A program made the position numbers and the translations under genes. Source: Escherichia phage ECP2301. Taken from it: a stretch of DNA of 64,000 nt. Below, one piece after another: positions 12 through 53,147 of the stretch. The notes beneath the pieces are model-generated. The model saw nothing but the letters and a program-made list of their open reading frames with translations. It had not been told where the DNA came from and did no database searches. Where the stretch lies: the sequence record OR880646.1; one strand, given 5' to 3'. How positions within the stretch are numbered: the stretch's first letter is position 1; each line of letters starts with the position of its first letter.

Positions 12-2189
12 TTAGGCCGCAAGGGCCTTCATAGTTTTAGCGATTTGGGAAACTTCATCATCACTTAAAGAGTTGCGATAACCGATGAAGTCGGAAACAA
101 TACGGAATTTCTTGGTAAACTCAGCAACCATTTTATCACTATTTTTTGAAGCATTATTTGACAATACATCAAAAAGATTAGTTACTGTCCAGATGTCATG
201 ACCGATGGTACCTTTTCCACCGTTGAAATATATGCCCTGTAATGAACTAACCATATTACCAAGACGAGTATATTCTTCAGAAACTTTATCTACACTGAAG
301 TACTTCATCATAAAATCGAGTTCAGGATACTTGATAATTTTATCAATATATCGTTTAGCTGAACTTGAATAACCTACATACTTATCATAATCTACAGCAT
401 CAAAAGCATCTACATATAAATCACGCAGAGTTTCAAAAATACATTGGCACTGACCAAGTTCTTTTACCTTTTTCTGCAAAAGCGGACGAATAACATAAAA
501 TTCATTAATGCCAATAAGATTAGCCATACGAGTCAAAATACTCGTAGATGGATGACAAAGCGATGTAGTACCATCCATAGAGAAAATATCAGAACGATGC
601 ATATACGCTACATAACCAGTAATTTCATCTGCTTCTGATGTGAGCGTAAACAGTTCCTCTTTTTCCCAGCGCCCGTCTTTAATTTCAAACTTAAACGCAG
701 TAGCAGTTTTAGGACGAGGAGCTTTACTTTTAACTGCCTTCGGAATATAACTTTTAACTAAAGCTTCAATTTCTGACAAATAATGAATGTTAACTTCATC
801 ACTTTCAAACATTGCCATAATATCAGGGAGTAAATCAATCTGCGATTCTACTTCCGGATTAATAAACAGAAGACGCTCATTATGATGAATGTTCAAAGTG
901 TTGTTAAATTCTTTATCATCTAACGCATGCGCTAATCCACGGACAATATTAACACGATTTTTAATATTATCAATAACGATATTAATTTTTGTTGTATTAA
1001 TACCGAACAGACGATAACTTGATGCAATGGCTGAAGTTTCATGACTTTGCTTAATGCGTTTCAGTCGAGGGTCAAGATTTACTTCATACACAACTCCTGC
1101 ATTGCATAGTTTACTATCAGGTTCAAACATGCTTTGCATCTTCTTATATGACAGATTTTTAGTCGTAAATTTGACTGAATTACTAATCATATAATCTCGA
1201 GCAGAATATCCCATCTTCATCAATTCACGGTATGTATGACGAGGAGATGTAGATTCTTTAAATCGTTTTACATCTTCATTGAATGCCTTCTCACTAAGCT
1301 CTTTAACACGCTCAATAATATTTTTACGAGTACGATCATCTAGTGAAAGAGCTTCGCGTGATGGAGCAATATCAAGTGAACCCATTGGAAACTTAATGTA
1401 ATTCACTTCATTGCGGATGCTTAACCAGTTACGGTCTCTAATAACACCGTCAATAGGATAAACAATACCACCATAGATAGCGTACAATCCACCACGATCT
1501 GGCCAGTATCTTTCTGGATTTACACCGTAATAGTCATCAAAATCTGGAAAATAATCAATTTCGCGGTCAAGACCATTAATGATAGCCAAATCTTTGAATG
1601 GTCGCATGATATAAGAAACTTCATAAGCAAAGTTTCTAAAGTCTTTTTCTTCAACTGGAACTACGATTTCAATACCAGTTTTATCATCTGGACCCATTTC
1701 TTTTACGAATGTAGGTTTAATCTGCGGACCATCACCATCCATGTAAGCTACATAACCACGAATTTCGCCTTTATGATATGAAGTAATACTAAATGTATCA
1801 GTATAACTAAACGGAGATTTAGAACCTAAACCAAATCCGCCAATGAAATCGTTAGATTCAGCCTTAGATGAACTGAAGTATGAATTATACAACCCAGGAG
1901 AATTATCATCACCTTGAATATCAAAATCACTCATACCCGGACCAAAATCTCGGCAAACAAATCGCGGATCTAATCGTCCTGGAACTTGAATGATAAATTT
2001 TTCAGGATTTCCATTGAGAGCATGGGCATCAATCATGTTGGTAATCAATTCACGGACTACTGCGCGAATCTTGTTTGTATACAAATCAGATGACAGAATT
2101 TTAAATACTTTAGGAGATGCTGTGATGCTAAATGCTTTTGACTTAGAACCATTACCAAGAATTGTTTCTTTTTCAGTGGTGATAATCAT
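12..2189 (-). CDS. rIIA: rIIA membrane-associated protein (GHKL ATPase-like N-terminal region), 725 aa
   Basis: 725-aa ORF whose N-terminus ([20 protein letters not shown]...) and length match T4 rIIA as I recall it; ATG start with GAGGAA upstream. Confidence 0.93.
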
Positions 2190-2199
2190 AATTTCCTCA

Positions 2200-2403
2200 T
2201 TAATTCATATTGCGTTTAATAACTTCAGCAACTTCTAGTAGTTCATCTTTAGTTGCAGTGTCGGATTGAATTTTATCTCTAATATCCTTAAAGCGGTTTT
2301 TAAACTCTTCGGCTTCTCCCATATCGAAAAAGCGTTGAATGATTCTATATTCTCGATGAACTGCTTTATCAAAAAGTTCTAAATTTACTTTATATGATTT
2401 CAT
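2200..2403 (-). CDS. small hypothetical protein (T4 rIIA.1 position), 67 aa
   Basis: ATG-initiated ORF directly upstream of rIIA, preceded by an early promoter and SD. Confidence 0.55.
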
Positions 2404-2428: not shown

Positions 2429-2458
2429 ATTATACCACATCCTTGTGGTAAAGTAAAC
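2429..2458 (-). promoter_or_regulatory. sigma70-type early promoter (-35 GTTTAC, 18-bp spacer, -10 TATAAT) upstream of rIIA.1/rIIA
   Basis: Minus strand reads GTTTACtttaccacaaggatgtggTATAAT, then SD and ATG. Confidence 0.6.
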
Positions 2459-4275
2459 TACTGGCTCATCCATTCTTTACGAAGGTCAGCATTATCTCCC
2501 ATGAGCATTTCAAAAAGCTCTTTCCAATTCTCAGGAAGTTTAACAACATCATATACTGGGTTTTGAATCATCTCACGATATTCAGATTTTTCCAAAGAGC
2601 CAAGTCCCTTAATATAACGGATGCTATGTTTAGGTAGAGCATCTTTGGCACTCTCATATTCAGCGACTGTATAAAACCATTCTTGTTTTTTACCGACCTG
2701 AGCGATGATTACAGGAGTTTTGACGAAACGAATTCTTCCTTGTTCAAACAGTTCTGGCCAATTACTAAAAAATCCGAGCAGAGAAGGATAAATGCTCCCT
2801 AGACCATCATGGTCAGCATCAGTCATAATAGCAATATTATGATAATTCAAGTTTTCAGCTTTTTCACCAAGAACTAATCCAGTGATTGCGCAAATGTCAA
2901 ACAGTTCTTTGTTTTTAAGCATATCGGCATATGACATACCCCAGCTATTAAGAACTTTACCACGCAATGGATAACCACCATGAAGTTCTTTATCACGAAC
3001 ATCAATAAGATATCCGATAGCAGAATCACCTTCAGTCAAGAAAAGAGTAGTATCAGCATCTTTACCACAAAGATTCGCTTTAATATGTTTATGAACCTTA
3101 GCTTTAGAAGCCTTTTTAGCTGCTTTAGTTTCTGCTGCCTTTTCTGCCGCCAATTTACGAGCCAAAGCAGCTTCAATAATTGGCATTAAAATTGCTTCAT
3201 TGTTTAAAATAGCGCGTGAAATCTTTTTAGCATCAAGCTGAATATGACTACGAATTTCACCAAATGGAGAAGTCAAACGCTCTTTAGTCTGAGAATCAAA
3301 TCGCATGTTTTTCATATCACGAACAAACATAACGATAGTCAAACATTCTTTAACCCGTGCTTTAGTTACATCAATTTTGAACTTACGTTTGATTTGTGGA
3401 ATAAGGTCTTCACAAATATCATCCATAACACAGTCAATGTGATGGCCACCATTCTTAGTATGAATGTTATTGACGTATGTTAATTGACGAAAACCATCCG
3501 GTGAACGACCAACCGCAATAGAACAATTTTCCTGTTCTTGAACGATAGCATGCTCATCATATTGGCGTGCATATTTCTTAAAATTACCCTGAACCTTTTT
3601 ACCATTAAAGGTAAATTGAATATCAGGATAAACTACTGCAAGTGTCTGGAGACGATCTAGTGTAATGTCAAGATAAACTTGAGATAGCTCATTAGTTTCA
3701 AATGACATAAAATCAGGAATGAAAGTAACACGAGTTCCTTTCCATTTTCCAGGAATAGTTTCCCATGATTTATTTTCCATGCCATTTGAACAACGAACTA
3801 CAATATTATTTTGACCATCGCCAGTTTCACCGACAAACATCACAGAAAAAATGTTAGTTAAACTAGAACCAACACCGTTCATACCGCCAGTGACGCGTTC
3901 TTTATCATCACCGAAGTTACCACCTGCTTTTGGAATAGTCCAGGCAGCAACAGGACCAGGAATTTCTTCACCAGTAGGTGTTTTAACCATCGCTTGTGGA
4001 ATACCACGACCGTTATCTTCAACTGTTACTTGATTGTTTTTAATAGTAACATTAATTTTATTCGCGAATTTAAACTTAGTACGAATACCTTCATCTACTG
4101 AGTTATCGATAATTTCATCAATAAGCTTAACAAGACCAGGTACATACTGAACACTTTCCCATTTACCAAACAGAAAGCGCTCATGCATTTCATTAGCAGA
4201 AGAGCCAATGTACATGCCGCTACGCTTTTTGATATGTTCAATATCGCTCAGAATTTTAATTTCATTCTTAATCAT
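2458..4275 (-). CDS. 39: DNA topoisomerase II large subunit, single uninterrupted ORF covering the T4 gene 39 and gene 60 regions, 605 aa
   Basis: GyrB-like ATPase motifs (MYIGS, EDNGRGIP); C-terminal part (AIMTDADHDGLGSIYPSLLGFFSNWPELF...KEWMSQ) is continuous with no gap; first track codon is GTG, ATG at 4275 has GAGGA upstream. Confidence 0.9.
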   Translation of the reverse strand: MIKNEIKILSDIEHIKKRSGMYIGSSANEMHERFLFGKWESVQYVPGLVKLIDEIIDNSVDEGIRTKFKFANKINVTIKNNQVTVEDNGRGIPQAMVKTPTGEEIPGPVAAWTIPKAGGNFGDDKERVTGGMNGVGSSLTNIFSVMFVGETGDGQNNIVVRCSNGMENKSWETIPGKWKGTRVTFIPDFMSFETNELSQVYLDITLDRLQTLAVVYPDIQFTFNGKKVQGNFKKYARQYDEHAIVQEQENCSIAVGRSPDGFRQLTYVNNIHTKNGGHHIDCVMDDICEDLIPQIKRKFKIDVTKARVKECLTIVMFVRDMKNMRFDSQTKERLTSPFGEIRSHIQLDAKKISRAILNNEAILMPIIEAALARKLAAEKAAETKAAKKASKAKVHKHIKANLCGKDADTTLFLTEGDSAIGYLIDVRDKELHGGYPLRGKVLNSWGMSYADMLKNKELFDICAITGLVLGEKAENLNYHNIAIMTDADHDGLGSIYPSLLGFFSNWPELFEQGRIRFVKTPVIIAQVGKKQEWFYTVAEYESAKDALPKHSIRYIKGLGSLEKSEYREMIQNPVYDVVKLPENWKELFEMLMGDNADLRKEWMSQ

Positions 4276-4344
4276 CACTTATCCTCGTTTGGTTTCGGGA
4301 ATATTATACTCCGGTAATCATAAAGCTAAAGGCCCGAAGGCCTT

Positions 4345-4605
4345 TTATTTAAAACGGATAGTCGAATCCTTGAAGAATAGACCAGAACATACGGTTCCTT
4401 CTACTTTCTGCCCGGTAGGTCCAATAGCACGAAATCCAGTATGTTGGAAATCATTTTCAGAGCAACCGAACCAGTTATATCCAGTGATTTCAATATTAGT
4501 AAAACCACTTGAAGACAAAACTTTGGTTGCATTATCAGCATCAGTACATCCTGCTAAAGACACTGCTAATACTAATGCTGCGATAGAACGATTAATATAT
4601 TTCAT
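4345..4605 (-). CDS. putative lipoprotein, 86 aa
   Basis: Signal peptide with lipobox (ALVLAVSLAGC); start moved to internal ATG. Confidence 0.5.
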   Translation of the reverse strand: MKYINRSIAALVLAVSLAGCTDADNATKVLSSSGFTNIEITGYNWFGCSENDFQHTGFRAIGPTGQKVEGTVCSGLFFKDSTIRFK

Positions 4606-4609
4606 AATT

Positions 4610-4984
4610 TCACTCAAATTTAATGGCTTGAAGAAGACTAATAATTCTCAAGCGACTTCTTTCATCTTTAACTGTAAAGGAAAGAGGGTCACCAGATTTC
4701 ATAGTAATAGTACATTCAAAATCAAAATCTTCTTCGTGGACTTCTTCGAATAGGTCAAATTCTTCATCATAAATTAGAACATTACTCTGAAAACTGTGAA
4801 GAATTTTTCCGTCATTTCCAGATGCTGTACTAATCATTGTAACATTATTACCTTTCATATCTTCAACGATAAATTCGCTTGTAGATATTACATTACTAAT
4901 AGAACCATTCCTATAAATAGCAGAAAATAGATATTTCTTTTCTTCACCTTCGCGAATACGATATTTCTTACCAATTTTAAACAT
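4610..4984 (-). CDS. hypothetical protein, 124 aa
   Basis: ORF in tight minus-strand array, ATG start. Confidence 0.45.
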   Translation of the reverse strand: MFKIGKKYRIREGEEKKYLFSAIYRNGSISNVISTSEFIVEDMKGNNVTMISTASGNDGKILHSFQSNVLIYDEEFDLFEEVHEEDFDFECTITMKSGDPLSFTVKDERSRLRIISLLQAIKFE

Positions 4985-4986
4985 AA

Positions 4987-5163
4987 TTACCCTTTAAGTA
5001 AGTCGTAAAAACCACCATTCACATGCTTAGGAGCGGAAACTAACCGAATAGCAATCCGATGACAATCAGGACATACATCATTTTCTCGTTCAGAAATTTT
5101 TTTGATTTTTTCGTATTCTTTTGCACAGTCTTTGGATTGACATTTATAATCATAAAGCGGCAT
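4987..5163 (-). CDS. small zinc-ribbon protein (FmdB-like CxxC...CPxC), 58 aa
   Basis: Translated by hand, below the track cutoff: MPLYDYKCQSKDCAKEYEKIKKISERENDVCPDCHRIAIRLVSAPKHVNGGFYDLLKG; fits exactly between neighbouring stop and start. Confidence 0.5.
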   Translation of the reverse strand: MPLYDYKCQSKDCAKEYEKIKKISERENDVCPDCHRIAIRLVSAPKHVNGGFYDLLKG

Positions 5164-6190: not shown

Positions 6191-6610
6191 TTATGCTAAA
6201 GCTGCTTCGCACCATTTTTTAATTTGGAATTCAGGAACTACCATGAACTGGCCTGCAAAAACAATATTGTAGAGCTTGACGCCATCTTCTACCCAACGGT
6301 CCGAAATAAAACCAGCGACTTGATTCGTTGTCCATGGAGTTCCATCTGTTGCCGCCGCAATTGTGAATTTATGGTCTTTTACAACTAAAACTGAAGAACA
6401 AAGTTTCCATTTAAATGCGCTTTCTTCTGGCTCAATGAATTGGCTTGAGACATAACCAATGTTACCATCAGCGTCACGAACTTTAACCTCGTTACGACCA
6501 AAAACTGGATCACTTACAGAAAGAACTTCAACCAGCTTTCCTGCAACTTTAGAACGAGAAGCAACAGATACATATACGTAATCACCAGTAGAGAGATTTA
6601 CAATATTCAT
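6191..6610 (-). CDS. hypothetical protein, motB-region paralog A, 139 aa
   Basis: Paralogous to the adjacent 158-aa ORF (shared SRSK(V/A)AG(K/R)LVEV and KLYNIVF motifs). Confidence 0.5.
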   Translation of the reverse strand: MNIVNLSTGDYVYVSVASRSKVAGKLVEVLSVSDPVFGRNEVKVRDADGNIGYVSSQFIEPEESAFKWKLCSSVLVVKDHKFTIAAATDGTPWTTNQVAGFISDRWVEDGVKLYNIVFAGQFMVVPEFQIKKWCEAALA

Positions 6611-6619
6611 AATAATTCC

Positions 6620-7096
6620 TTAAGCTTTACGAGGAGAAGCATAACGAGTGATTTCAGATTCTTCAACAACCCGGAAGTCACCTAAAAATACAATATTGTA
6701 TAGCTTTTTACCGTCTTCAATCCATTGGTCTGTAATGAAGCCACACATCCTATCAGTTTTACTTGGACCAGCGAAATCATCAATATAATCGAATTTTTCA
6801 GCAGTTACAAATTCAACGCCTTTGCACAACGGCCATTTAAATTGTGCATTAGGCTTAGTGGATTCAACTTCTTTAACAGAAGCAAAATGAGCGCTAACAC
6901 GAGTTTCCAGAAATTTAGGACTTACGTAAGCGTACTGAGTTTCAATTTTTCCAGAACTAGGAATGATTCGAACTTTAACTTCTTTAACACGACCAGTACC
7001 ATTAGTACGAAGTCCTACCACTTCAACTAGACGACCTGCAGCTTTAGAACGGGATTTATCAGATACACGAGCAATTTCACCAATATTAATAATCAT
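6620..7096 (-). CDS. hypothetical protein, motB-region paralog B, 158 aa (T4 motB position)
   Basis: Paralog of 6191..6610; ATG start; early promoter upstream. Confidence 0.5.
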   Translation of the reverse strand: MIINIGEIARVSDKSRSKAAGRLVEVVGLRTNGTGRVKEVKVRIIPSSGKIETQYAYVSPKFLETRVSAHFASVKEVESTKPNAQFKWPLCKGVEFVTAEKFDYIDDFAGPSKTDRMCGFITDQWIEDGKKLYNIVFLGDFRVVEESEITRYASPRKA

Positions 7097-15706: not shown

Positions 15707-15777
15707 TATTTTTCCTTTCAATTCATGGGTTAGTAGATTAATTATACAATAAATATATAAAGCAATAAGGAGGATAT

Positions 15778-21956: not shown

Positions 21957-22799
21957 TTAATCAACTGCTATTGGATGAATAGCATTAAACTTATGAAACG
22001 CTTCTGATTTTTCTTTGCGCGAAACACACATGCGAAGAACCTTTAATGGCTCGTCTTCTTCACCCAACGATTTTCTCTTTTCAATATTCGATGTTTTCCA
22101 GCGAGCTTGCTCTGGAAACTCTCTATTGATTTGCTCAAGAGCTCTATTATGTTTTGAATTACTACGAATTGAACTACATCCGCCAGGAGCTTGCGCTTTT
22201 CCGGATACAACCAGATATTTGAACAAGGCCAAATGCGGATAACCTTGATTAATTAAATTGAGAAATGCATACATATCTTCGCATAAATCAATTTTTCCAT
22301 ACCCAATTTGTTCTGTTGTAAGTTTTCCGAGGTCATACCAGGTATTCGTGAATCCATATGAATTTTCACGATAATTACCCCAAGATGAAGTAATTTTAAA
22401 AATTGGTAGACGAGCATGACCATGATAATACCCGCAATCCATGGCATCTTCAACGTATTGAATCAATTCATAGAACTGTTCACGAGTTAACTGATTAATT
22501 TTATCTACGCAGCGACGATCATCTTTCTTTCGCATTGAACTCATACGAATAGTAGTATCATCGTCAATCATCCAAATTCGTTGACCTGCATACATATCAG
22601 TAATTGCTTTGCGAGTGCCAGCAATTCCATTAACATCATCAGGAATAGTTATAATTTTGGCTCTAGACCCGTAAGCGTCATAATAAGCTTTTTCTTCGTG
22701 TTCACGTACTACAATATGAGGTTCATAATCAGTCGGAAACATATCAAGGGCAGAAACTGCCCCTACGCGTTGATAGCTTGGAATTACGAATTGAATCAT
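21957..22799 (-). CDS. putative HMC-DNA glucosyltransferase with DxD motif at the beta-gt locus, 280 aa
   Basis: IWMIDDDT (DxD); sits between uvsX and gene 42 where T4 has beta-gt (351 aa by my recollection); ATG overlaps gene 42 stop (ATGA). Confidence 0.5.
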   Translation of the reverse strand: MIQFVIPSYQRVGAVSALDMFPTDYEPHIVVREHEEKAYYDAYGSRAKIITIPDDVNGIAGTRKAITDMYAGQRIWMIDDDTTIRMSSMRKKDDRRCVDKINQLTREQFYELIQYVEDAMDCGYYHGHARLPIFKITSSWGNYRENSYGFTNTWYDLGKLTTEQIGYGKIDLCEDMYAFLNLINQGYPHLALFKYLVVSGKAQAPGGCSSIRSNSKHNRALEQINREFPEQARWKTSNIEKRKSLGEEDEPLKVLRMCVSRKEKSEAFHKFNAIHPIAVD

Positions 22800-23536
22800 T
22801 TCCACTCACCTTTATAGTCTTTTTTCACAATATGAGTTTCGCCAGTATTCCACCAATGATCAACCAAGTAAAAATGACGAGAATATACATGAAGACTTCC
22901 AACATTCCATATAATAGAACCTGCTTTATACTGACGAGTTGAATCGCCTGCATTCAAATCAGATACTAATTTATCTAATACGTATTTTTGCCATGCATAA
23001 TCATTACGGAATCCGAAGACCACGTCATTTGAACGCATGCTTACTACTGCATTGACTTTCTTATCACGAATCAGGTACTGTACTGTATTCGTACACATGA
23101 AATCTGACATACCATCTTTATTGTAGTCAAACTGCATGGATGGACGAGTATAAATCATGATACCGCGTCGAGAATCAGGATTTTGACCAAGTTCAGCTAA
23201 ACACATATCATACTGGGCATAGTTATCTTCTGACCAGATGGCCCAACCATAATTCGAGTTAATTTCGCCCTTAGAAGATGCTACCTGCTGCCAAATCTTT
23301 GGTGTTTCACCTGGAATATCTTTAACAAACAAACTTTTAGATTTATACCATTCAAGTTCACGCTGAATGTATTCATCATTAAGAGCGCCAAAAATAAAAG
23401 GTTCATCTGCTACAAATGATGCGCCAATAATTTCAATAGTTTTAACACCAGTTTTATCAACTACGAAATCTTTTTCTTTTAATGCAAGCCCCAAATGAAG
23501 ACGGATTTCTTCAACTGTCATAGAGTCACTAATCAT
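22796..23536 (-). CDS. 42: dCMP hydroxymethylase, 246 aa
   Basis: Thymidylate-synthase-like fold; 246 aa as T4 gp42. Confidence 0.9.
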   Translation of the reverse strand: MISDSMTVEEIRLHLGLALKEKDFVVDKTGVKTIEIIGASFVADEPFIFGALNDEYIQRELEWYKSKSLFVKDIPGETPKIWQQVASSKGEINSNYGWAIWSEDNYAQYDMCLAELGQNPDSRRGIMIYTRPSMQFDYNKDGMSDFMCTNTVQYLIRDKKVNAVVSMRSNDVVFGFRNDYAWQKYVLDKLVSDLNAGDSTRQYKAGSIIWNVGSLHVYSRHFYLVDHWWNTGETHIVKKDYKGEWK

Positions 23537-51151: not shown

Positions 51152-52165
51152 TCATTTATAATAACTTCGATGGTTTTCAAGATAAACCCTCTCAAGGAAG
51201 TCATCCCAGAAACCCATGTCTACTTTTTGCTGCATACCGTTCTTAGAAGCTTCAATGGATGCTGCTTCTACTTGATCGACCACATCTTCCAAAAACTCTT
51301 GAACAGTTTTAAATGGATGTTTACCCAACTTCACGTCAAGAATAAATGGAGCGTCTTGAAGTGGATAGACTAAGTCACCAGTTTTGTAAATTTCCAATAG
51401 TTGGAGTCCACCACGGCAAGCATGACTCAGAGCTTTCCAGTCAATGCCCTCATTCGCTTCAGCCTTACGAGCACGTTCGCCGTATTCAGCATCAAGTTTA
51501 TTCAAAGACTGCTTAAGCTCAATAAGAGAAAGCGTTGTTTGATATTTACGACCCAGCACAGTGTAGAACGTTTGTGGACCTGTTTTCTCATGATTATGGA
51601 ATACCCATTCACAGAATTCGTTCTCTGGAAGACGATGCTTAATATCTTCAACTTTAGTTCGACGCTGCTTAATGGAACCGTCTTCTTGGTAATCAACCCA
51701 TTGCTCAGGGATTTGATTAACTACTTTCAATACATCACGTAATGCGGCCAAACGAGAACCCTTGACGCCGTATTTAGAAGCTTGCTTGCGAACATATCCT
51801 AAATAGGATTTCATGTTAGTCGTATAAAAACGAGAACGGTTGTCTTGAATAAACTTCCATACATCAGGCAAATCAGATTTAACTACCAGTTCAGGTGGAG
51901 TGTGGAGCATATCCAATGCTACAGTTTCACCATCTGCTGCTAATTTAAAGAAATACTTAAGACTGTATAGTTCATGGTCAATATCATCTTTAGTGTTTTT
52001 AGATGATGTGTTGTTAGTGTTTTTACTCATATGCTCTTTAACATTTCCTATAAGAATATCACGAGCAGGAGGAACAAAGATTTCTTTAAAATCTACATCA
52101 GATTCTGGAGTAGAAGTTCCATAAAGATGACTACCAAAATAGCTTTTCATTACTGTTTTCATCAT
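51152..52165 (-). CDS. predicted nucleotidyltransferase-fold protein (GS...DVD motif), 337 aa
   Basis: N-terminal FGSHLYGTSTPESDVDF resembles Pol-beta-superfamily NTase signature; terminator after stop. Confidence 0.45.
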   Translation of the reverse strand: MMKTVMKSYFGSHLYGTSTPESDVDFKEIFVPPARDILIGNVKEHMSKNTNNTSSKNTKDDIDHELYSLKYFFKLAADGETVALDMLHTPPELVVKSDLPDVWKFIQDNRSRFYTTNMKSYLGYVRKQASKYGVKGSRLAALRDVLKVVNQIPEQWVDYQEDGSIKQRRTKVEDIKHRLPENEFCEWVFHNHEKTGPQTFYTVLGRKYQTTLSLIELKQSLNKLDAEYGERARKAEANEGIDWKALSHACRGGLQLLEIYKTGDLVYPLQDAPFILDVKLGKHPFKTVQEFLEDVVDQVEAASIEASKNGMQQKVDMGFWDDFLERVYLENHRSYYK

Positions 52166-52623
52166 TCAGCCTTATATTCAATAACAGGACATACTTTAGC
52201 TTTACGCGCTTTTAAAAATTCGACGATAATAGATTTCTTGGGTTGAATAGGAGGTAAACCTTTATACGCCCTATCAATATTTTCTACATGTAAAGCATAA
52301 TCCTTTTTCCATTTATAATCTTTATATTTTTCATGCAGTTGTGCAGGAATAACAAATGAACCAATAATAAGTAAAACAAGCAAAATGGCAAGTATAAATG
52401 CTGATGGAATAAGAGTCCATAAACTACCAAAAATAAGCCATTTCTGTATGATTTCTGCGCAGATAATAGTTAGACCTGCGAGCATAGTACATCCGAATAA
52501 AGAAACGAAAAATGTAGGGATAACAATAGACCAAAAATACGCGCACAGTGTCTTAGGTCGTTTCCATTCGTCGTTAAACATTTTGAATAATTTATAATGC
52601 CAAGAGTTTTCATTAATAATCAT
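52162..52623 (-). CDS. membrane protein, 153 aa
   Basis: Multiple hydrophobic helices; ATG start. Confidence 0.45.
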   Translation of the reverse strand: MIINENSWHYKLFKMFNDEWKRPKTLCAYFWSIVIPTFFVSLFGCTMLAGLTIICAEIIQKWLIFGSLWTLIPSAFILAILLVLLIIGSFVIPAQLHEKYKDYKWKKDYALHVENIDRAYKGLPPIQPKKSIIVEFLKARKAKVCPVIEYKAE

Positions 52624-52625
52624 AA

Positions 52626-53147
52626 TTATCCTTTCATTGAAGGTGTAACAGTTGTTAAATACTTAATCATAGCTTCAGCTTCTGATTTTGATAATGAAAT
52701 TTCTCCATTGTTTTGACGAATAGAAATAAAATCCGGATGACGGTCACCACCAGCTTTTAAAATACACATATAAGTATCAGTTTCATCTTCAATATCTGAA
52801 ATAATTGAAGCAGTTCCACATGAATGTGGTTTTTGATAAATCAATGCAGCTTTTCTTCCACCGTTTGACTGTTCATAAACTTTTAACACATCAAACAAAT
52901 CGCTTCTTTTATCAATAGCTAAGATGTTGTTTTCATCTTCAATGTTAAATCCTTCGGATACTTCATAAAGTGTCACCCATAAATCGCCAATATCAATGAC
53001 AGCATTCACCTTTCCATGATTTTCAAGAGCATTACAAATTTTCTTAATTTCATCATAACTCATTTTAATAATATCATCTCCTTGAATAAGGAAGATGTCA
53101 TTTTTAAATTCAACACGAATTAAACCACTTCCACTTGAAATAAACAT
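52626..53147 (-). CDS. hypothetical protein, tandem paralog A, 173 aa
   Basis: Shares GFNIE and C-terminal (E/D)EA(I/E)A(L/M)(I/K)(K/T)YL..V.P.M motifs with next ORF. Confidence 0.45.
   Translation of the reverse strand: MFISSGSGLIRVEFKNDIFLIQGDDIIKMSYDEIKKICNALENHGKVNAVIDIGDLWVTLYEVSEGFNIEDENNILAIDKRSDLFDVLKVYEQSNGGRKAALIYQKPHSCGTASIISDIEDETDTYMCILKAGGDRHPDFISIRQNNGEISLSKSEAEAMIKYLTTVTPSMKG

Follow-up and report, generated by a model that had tools for sequence, protein, structure and literature searches.

The type II DNA topoisomerase of phage T4 relaxes DNA without supercoiling it; the enzyme is made as three subunits, and its synthesis requires translational bypassing. The enzymes of T2 and T6 consist of gp39 and gp52 only, and ATP-dependent DNA relaxation has been shown for T6 topoisomerase II (PMC11461880). 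The structure of T6 gp39 (Nat Commun 2024, PMC11461880; accession YP_010067157.1; PDB 8YLU, 8YO1, 8YO5, 8YO7, 8YOD, 8YON and 9IMJ) is the closest structural reference, with the metal site at E415, D486 and D488 and DNA contacts at D490, R438, K440 and K556 (PMC11461880).

Manning and Atkins contrasted 'parental' Topo2L genes with MobA-invaded relatives (bioRxiv 10.1101/2022.08.31.505936). In their description the MobA insert is about 1097-1106 nt long, the gene loses 55-75 nt on its insertion (64 nt in the HY01 example), and the removed stretch is replaced by a cassette-borne homologous region 67-81% identical to the parent, with the 5' breakpoint at residues 466-473 and the 3' end just past D490/G491, plus 9 nt in the T4 clade (bioRxiv 10.1101/2022.08.31.505936). 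Citing Bonocora et al. 2011, the same study states that MobA nicks T2 inside the replaced region, and it attributes the protection of invaded genomes to the gap and not to the recoding (bioRxiv 10.1101/2022.08.31.505936).

The DNA analysed here is a stretch of 64,000 nt from Escherichia phage ECP2301 (sequence record OR880646.1), referred to below as the window. It is Tequatrovirus DNA, about 95-97% identical to the nearest records over 25 kb, and no record of the collection was identical to it over the stretches compared. Its gene 39 is best read as an intact, never-invaded 'parental' allele of the T-even topoisomerase II large-subunit gene, a reading to which a probability of about 0.95 was assigned. 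The one-piece gene is an already known, common and structurally characterised arrangement.

The gene 39 reading frame and its relatives

In the six-frame ORF list the frame occupies 2458..4278 on the minus strand, with 606 aa counted from a GTG, and the ATG one codon further on, at 4275, gives a CDS of 605 codons plus stop (4275..2458; Table 1). This ATG is homologous to the annotated gene 39 starts of T4, T6, T2 and RB14, and it was favoured as the start because the Shine-Dalgarno sequence GAGGA stands 6 nt from it, whereas the GTG at 4278 is a mere 3 nt away. The first-pass annotation, which had described a 605-aa ORF at 2458-4275, was right in coordinates and length and left the minus strand of the gene unstated. 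The translation contains no internal stop and the DNA has roughly 36% G+C; chance does not account for a 605-codon frame of this composition whose product matches a structurally solved protein at 99.8% identity.

Table 1. Positions of gene 39, its parts and the signals upstream of it (window coordinates)
Feature	Position	Strand	Basis
Gene 39 ('60plus39'), DNA topoisomerase II large subunit: GHKL ATPase, transducer, TOPRIM, TOPRIM_C	2458..4275	minus	
ATPase and transducer half, about aa 1-385	3121..4275	minus	motifs, Pfam, PDB 9imj match
TOPRIM and C-terminal region, about aa 406-605, single chain	2461..3060	minus	residues, Pfam
64-nt 'parental' segment, CDS nt 1419-1482, codons 473-494	2794..2857	minus	blastn breakpoints, codon comparison
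Codons G491 (GGT) and L492 (CTA), adjacent	2800..2805	minus	codon comparison
Shine-Dalgarno GAGGA, 6 nt upstream of ATG 4275	4286-4282	minus	sequence read
Candidate promoter: GCTTTA (4326-4321), 12-nt spacer, TATAAT (4308-4303)	4326-4303	minus	sequence read
Hairpin GGCC-TTCG-GGCC followed by TTT, after gene 39.1	4342-4328	minus	sequence read

Three Pfam domains were found above their cut-offs, HATPase_c at aa 47-149 (38.4 bits), DNA_gyraseB at aa 250-384 (51.1 bits) and TOPRIM_C at aa 519-604, and a Toprim match at aa 410-492 stayed below threshold (17.5 bits against a cut-off of 23.1). The ATPase N-box (EIIDNSVDE, 54-62) and G-boxes are present, with DNGRGIP at 87-93 and GGMNGVG at 130-136, as is the QTK loop SQTKERL at aa 328-334. 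The TOPRIM metal site, E415 in TEGDSA and D486/D488 in DADHDG, is at the same positions as in T6, and the DNA-contact residues named for T6 (D490, R438, K440 and K556) are all present. Over the full length of aa 1-605 the protein was matched by PHROG 543, 'DNA topoisomerase II large subunit' (E 1.6e-295), and by the top PDB match, 8ylu_C (T6 gp39); the T6 ATPase domain (PDB 9imj) was matched over aa 1-380. The claim that the GyrB-like ATPase runs straight on is thus borne out by HATPase_c, DNA_gyraseB and TOPRIM_C, which lead from the ATPase/transducer half into the TOPRIM/C-terminal part.

Compared with T6 gp39 and RB14 '60plus39', the window protein is identical at 604 of 605 residues in each case, and compared with T2 gp39 at 603 of 605 (99.7-99.8% identity). 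The differing residues are Q526, which is H in T6, T173, which is D in T2, RB14 and T4, and F70, which is L in T2. The genes themselves differ by 40-68 nt over 1818 nt, mostly synonymously, and the 60 nt differences from T6 lead to one amino-acid change, which indicates strong purifying selection on gene 39. T6, T2 and RB14/ime09 share with the window the length of 605 aa, the start, the stop, the catalytic residues and the lack of a cassette, and in T6, T2 and RB14 the gene has the same map position (rIIA, rIIA.1, gene 39, 39.1). The arrangement had been described from the sequence as the uninterrupted one of T2/T6-like phages, which agrees with the 605-aa ORFs of T2 and T6 at the same place, 2 and 1 aa different respectively, and with the published account of these enzymes (PMC11461880).

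Beyond the phages, the protein was aligned continuously to human TOP2A/B over aa 10-603 (E about 1e-59) and to pneumococcal ParE over aa 6-603 (E about 4e-48). Since these alignments are unbroken, the one-piece form corresponds to the general type IIA layout and the T4 split is the exception. GyrB, ParE and the N-terminal half of eukaryotic Top2 carry the same ATPase-transducer-TOPRIM order in one chain; relative to these cellular B modules, phage gp39 is a compact viral version whose partner is the short GyrA-like gp52.

Prevalence was determined with a 184-nt query spanning the junction, searched against the phage record collection. The uninterrupted junction was present as one ungapped piece in 451 phage records, and 41 further records matched one flank of the query only. 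The T4 insert was found in 43 records, 41 of which covered 80% or more of it, and the one-flank count of 41 agrees with these 41-43 cassette records. Close relatives with the unsplit form outnumber those with the T4 form roughly tenfold. An earlier count of 521 uninterrupted records was dropped, as it had joined pieces up to about 1.8 kb apart and probably included T4-type records. The records of RB14 and ime09 annotate the unsplit gene as '60plus39'.

Comparison with T4 genes 39 and 60 and the MobA cassette

For the comparison with T4 (reference NC_000866), DNA was compared by blastn and proteins by blastp. The T4 genes 39/60 and the window gene encode the same enzyme between the same flanking genes, and two collinear blastn blocks were obtained, the first pairing window 4497-2858 with T4 5550-3911 (96.0%) and the second pairing window 2793-2301 with T4 2793-2301 (98.6%). 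Between them lie 64 nt in the window (2794-2857) and 1117 nt in T4 (2794-3910), the latter holding the 3' end of gene 39, a mobA pseudogene with ORF 60.1, the 5' part of gene 60 and the 50-nt bypass region; in T4T the corresponding length is 1106 nt and mobA is intact. In this alignment to T4 genes 39 and 60, which had been proposed as the check on the uninterrupted arrangement, the insertion is absent from the window and the frame is unbroken.

At the protein level, aa 1-473 correspond to T4 gp39 1-473 (465/473 identical, 98%) and aa 472-605 to T4 gp60 27-160 (128/134 identical, 96%), so that the region encoded by T4 gene 60 is fused in frame, as had been proposed; the peptide quoted in that proposal, AIMTDADHDGLGSIYPSLLGFF, is present in the window protein. 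The T4 cassette adds 43 aa to the C-terminus of gp39 and about 30 aa to the N-terminus of gp60. By blastp the window protein has no counterpart to the 43 extra C-terminal residues of T4 gp39 (FEEKEDGEWF...) and none to the first 26-30 residues of T4 gp60 (MKFVKIDSSS...). The cassette further carries the HNH endonuclease gene mobA, a recoded 16-codon copy within gp60 and the 50-nt gap after Gly46.

The take-off Gly46 and resume Leu47 of T4 correspond to G491-L492 of the window. T4 reads ...GAT GGA [TAG ... 50 nt ... GGA] TTA GGT TCT..., whereas the window reads ...GAT GGT CTA GGG AGC..., and the codon comparison revealed neither a stop nor a matched take-off/landing GGA pair at G491-L492. GGT and CTA being adjacent without a stop, the split and the 50-nt hop are absent, as the first-pass annotation had claimed; the further differences of T4, namely its two extensions and the exchange of 64 nt for a recoded copy, had gone unstated in it.

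The 5' break in the window follows CDS nt 1418 (codon 473). Against the recoded copy of T4, the window is identical at 35 of 48 nt (73%), then at 4 of 9 nt immediately after the gap, and at 327 of 333 nt beyond. Judged from these alignments, the breakpoints, the 64-nt segment and the 73% identity fit the published parental description exactly. Over CDS nt 1400-1478 the window is identical to T2. The one departure from T2 in this region is at nt 1479 (codon 493), a synonymous GGG against the GGA of T2, T6 and RB14, and this GGG sits just 3' of the gap position of T4. Because the nick-site region is identical to that of T2, the experimental substrate of MobA, gene 39 of ECP2301 is probably still sensitive to MobA and a homing target in mixed infection with a MobA+ phage.

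The cassette was also sought across all 64 kb. No MobA-like ORF was found in the 64 kb by tblastn with the intact T4T MobA (272 aa; best E 0.76), in keeping with the earlier observation that a mobA-like insertion is lacking. The 50-nt coding gap of T4 had no match on either strand of the whole 64 kb at up to 12 mismatches, and the two T4 extension peptides gave only chance-level tblastn matches over the same length. A relocated cassette elsewhere in the window was rejected, with MobA, the gap and the extension peptides all at chance level over the 64 kb. The T4-type MobA/bypass cassette is absent from the window.

A separate difference from the T4 reference concerns codons 326-328 (window 3292-3300), where MR-LIR-QTK of T4 NC_000866 stands against MR-FDS-QTK in the window, in T6 and in the resequenced T4T. 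At the DNA level this corresponds to a compensating -1/+1 pair in the T4 reference (CGATTGATTCGTCAA against CGATTTGATTCTCAA), adjoining the conserved QTK ATP-contact loop, and the LIR is probably an old sequencing error and not biology.

Neighbouring genes and the rest of the window

The context of gene 39 is conserved in this Tequatrovirus genome, the gene lying downstream of rIIA (12..2189) and rIIA.1 (2200..2403; Pfam T4_RIIA1) and beside a homologue of 39.1, the order with which a T-even map normally opens. On the other side, three minus-strand ORFs were found: the 39.1 ORF (4345-4617; 90 aa from a TTG start), which matches the 86-aa 39.1 of RB14 and compares with 65 aa in T4; an extra 124-aa ORF (4610-4984) with no Pfam match, 89% identical to RB14 'RB32ORF005c' and lacking in T4; and the 39.2 ORF (4987-5163), with 58 aa against 45 aa in T4. 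The GCTTTA-12 nt-TATAAT candidate has a geometry which we take to be that of a T4 MotA-dependent middle promoter (MotA-box consensus). A sigma-70 promoter and terminator scan around gene 39 listed neither this site nor the hairpin, and its results there were no better than those from shuffled sequence. Neither a homologue of gp52, the subunit with the catalytic tyrosine, nor a second GyrB-like copy was found within the 64-kb window; in T4, gene 52 is situated past rIIB (upstream of it) at the far end of the map, a position that falls outside the window.

The remaining region was compared by aligning the window with T4 1-75000 and by tblastn searches of the window with T4 proteins. There was no match in the window at E <= 1e-3 for segF, segA, mobB, mobC, I-TevII or mobD, and with mobA all seven T4 homing-endonuclease genes of the corresponding region are absent. 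The nrdD group I intron is precisely absent: where T4 has 1035 nt, the window has 2 nt. No Rfam family reached its gathering score anywhere in the window, which leaves neither a group I intron nor any other curated RNA. Example sites for these absences are window 41428/41431, 35637/35662 and 14803/15225. That gene 39 is uninvaded agrees with the general scarcity of homing endonucleases in this genome.

Several other regions also differ from T4. Two diverged MotB-family ORFs stand in tandem on the minus strand (6191-6610 and 6620-7096; 139 and 158 aa), with Pfam motB E-values of 6e-20 and 7e-44 and 37% and 48% identity to T4 MotB, respectively; they stand in for the motB, motB.1, motB.2 block of T4, and no homologue of motB.1 or motB.2 was detected. 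Between the gene 56 homologue and the stretch upstream of gene 61 the window has just 40 nt (15727-15766), as against 919 nt including dam in T4, and a Dam homologue was not found anywhere in the window at E <= 1e-3. With 69% aa identity to its T4 counterpart, the gene 56 homologue also shows an unusual degree of divergence.

In place of the T4 block of segA and beta-glucosyltransferase, 1941 nt long, the window has 946 nt, which encode a 282-aa TAGT-family glycosyltransferase (21957-22805, minus strand; Pfam PF20691, E 1.2e-9). No beta-gt homologue was found in the window and alpha-gt is present at 90% identity, and this combination of a TAGT glycosyltransferase and alpha-gt without beta-gt presumably resembles the T2/T6-type glucosylation gene set. 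At the place of T4 mobD, two ORFs unrelated to mobD were found (52162-53147, minus strand), one encoding a 173-aa y05I-like putative transcription factor (Pfam PF24449/PF24448) and the other a 153-aa protein with long hydrophobic stretches and no Pfam match.

The proposed never-invaded allele, its alternatives and its significance

In the proposed mechanism, the single frame would be translated conventionally from the ATG at 4275 into a 605-aa chain that comprises a GHKL ATPase, a transducer and the complete TOPRIM domain with its metal site (E415 ... D486-x-D488). Together with gp52 this chain would form an A2B2 ATP-dependent type IIA topoisomerase of the two-subunit type solved for T6, and its near-identity to T6 gp39 suggests that it is enzymatically active. 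With no MobA cassette of roughly 1.1 kb splitting TOPRIM as in T4, neither reassembly of a split TOPRIM from separate subunits nor ribosomal bypassing would be required, and in contrast to T4, ECP2301 should make two topoisomerase subunits.

It is conceivable that the continuous ORF is misleading, being a pseudogene, an assembly artefact or a frame with hidden recoding. This is hardly credible for a frame with no internal stop, 604/605 identity to T6 and intact catalytic motifs, in which the nucleotide differences from T6 bear the mark of strong purifying selection and whose junction recurs without a gap in 451 independent records. Nothing was found in support of a pseudogene or an artefact, and the alignments refute both.

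A different history could lead to the same gene, namely that the cassette was once present and was lost again ('hit and run'), whether it was deleted precisely or exchanged for an uninvaded allele by recombination. T-even phages recombine freely, the window is a mosaic at its level of identity to the nearest records, and clades that have lost the endonuclease and the gap are reported (bioRxiv 10.1101/2022.08.31.505936). The published cases of loss keep the cassette-encoded extensions, however, and neither extension is traceable in the window; the 64-nt segment is also of the parental type, matching T2 and not the recoded copy of T4. Conversion by a naive allele would produce just the state observed; even so, a secondary loss is considered very unlikely, and if true it would leave the present identity of gene 39 unchanged. 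Little weight is likewise given to the combined possibility that the gene reverted through conversion by a naive allele or that the codon-493 GGG is the signature of a naive allele naturally resistant to MobA. If true, each of these would have implications for cassette gain, loss and resistance in wild T-even populations.

The one-piece arrangement has a practical consequence for annotation: the joined CDS and bypass feature of T4 should not be transferred to the ECP2301 genome. Hundreds of Tequatrovirus genomes carry the unsplit gene under the annotation '60plus39' or 'DNA topoisomerase II large subunit'. Because ECP2301 appears to retain an intact MobA target and has none of the seven homing-endonuclease genes of T4 in the corresponding 64 kb, the phage would be a naive recipient and could serve in homing or marker-exclusion crosses.
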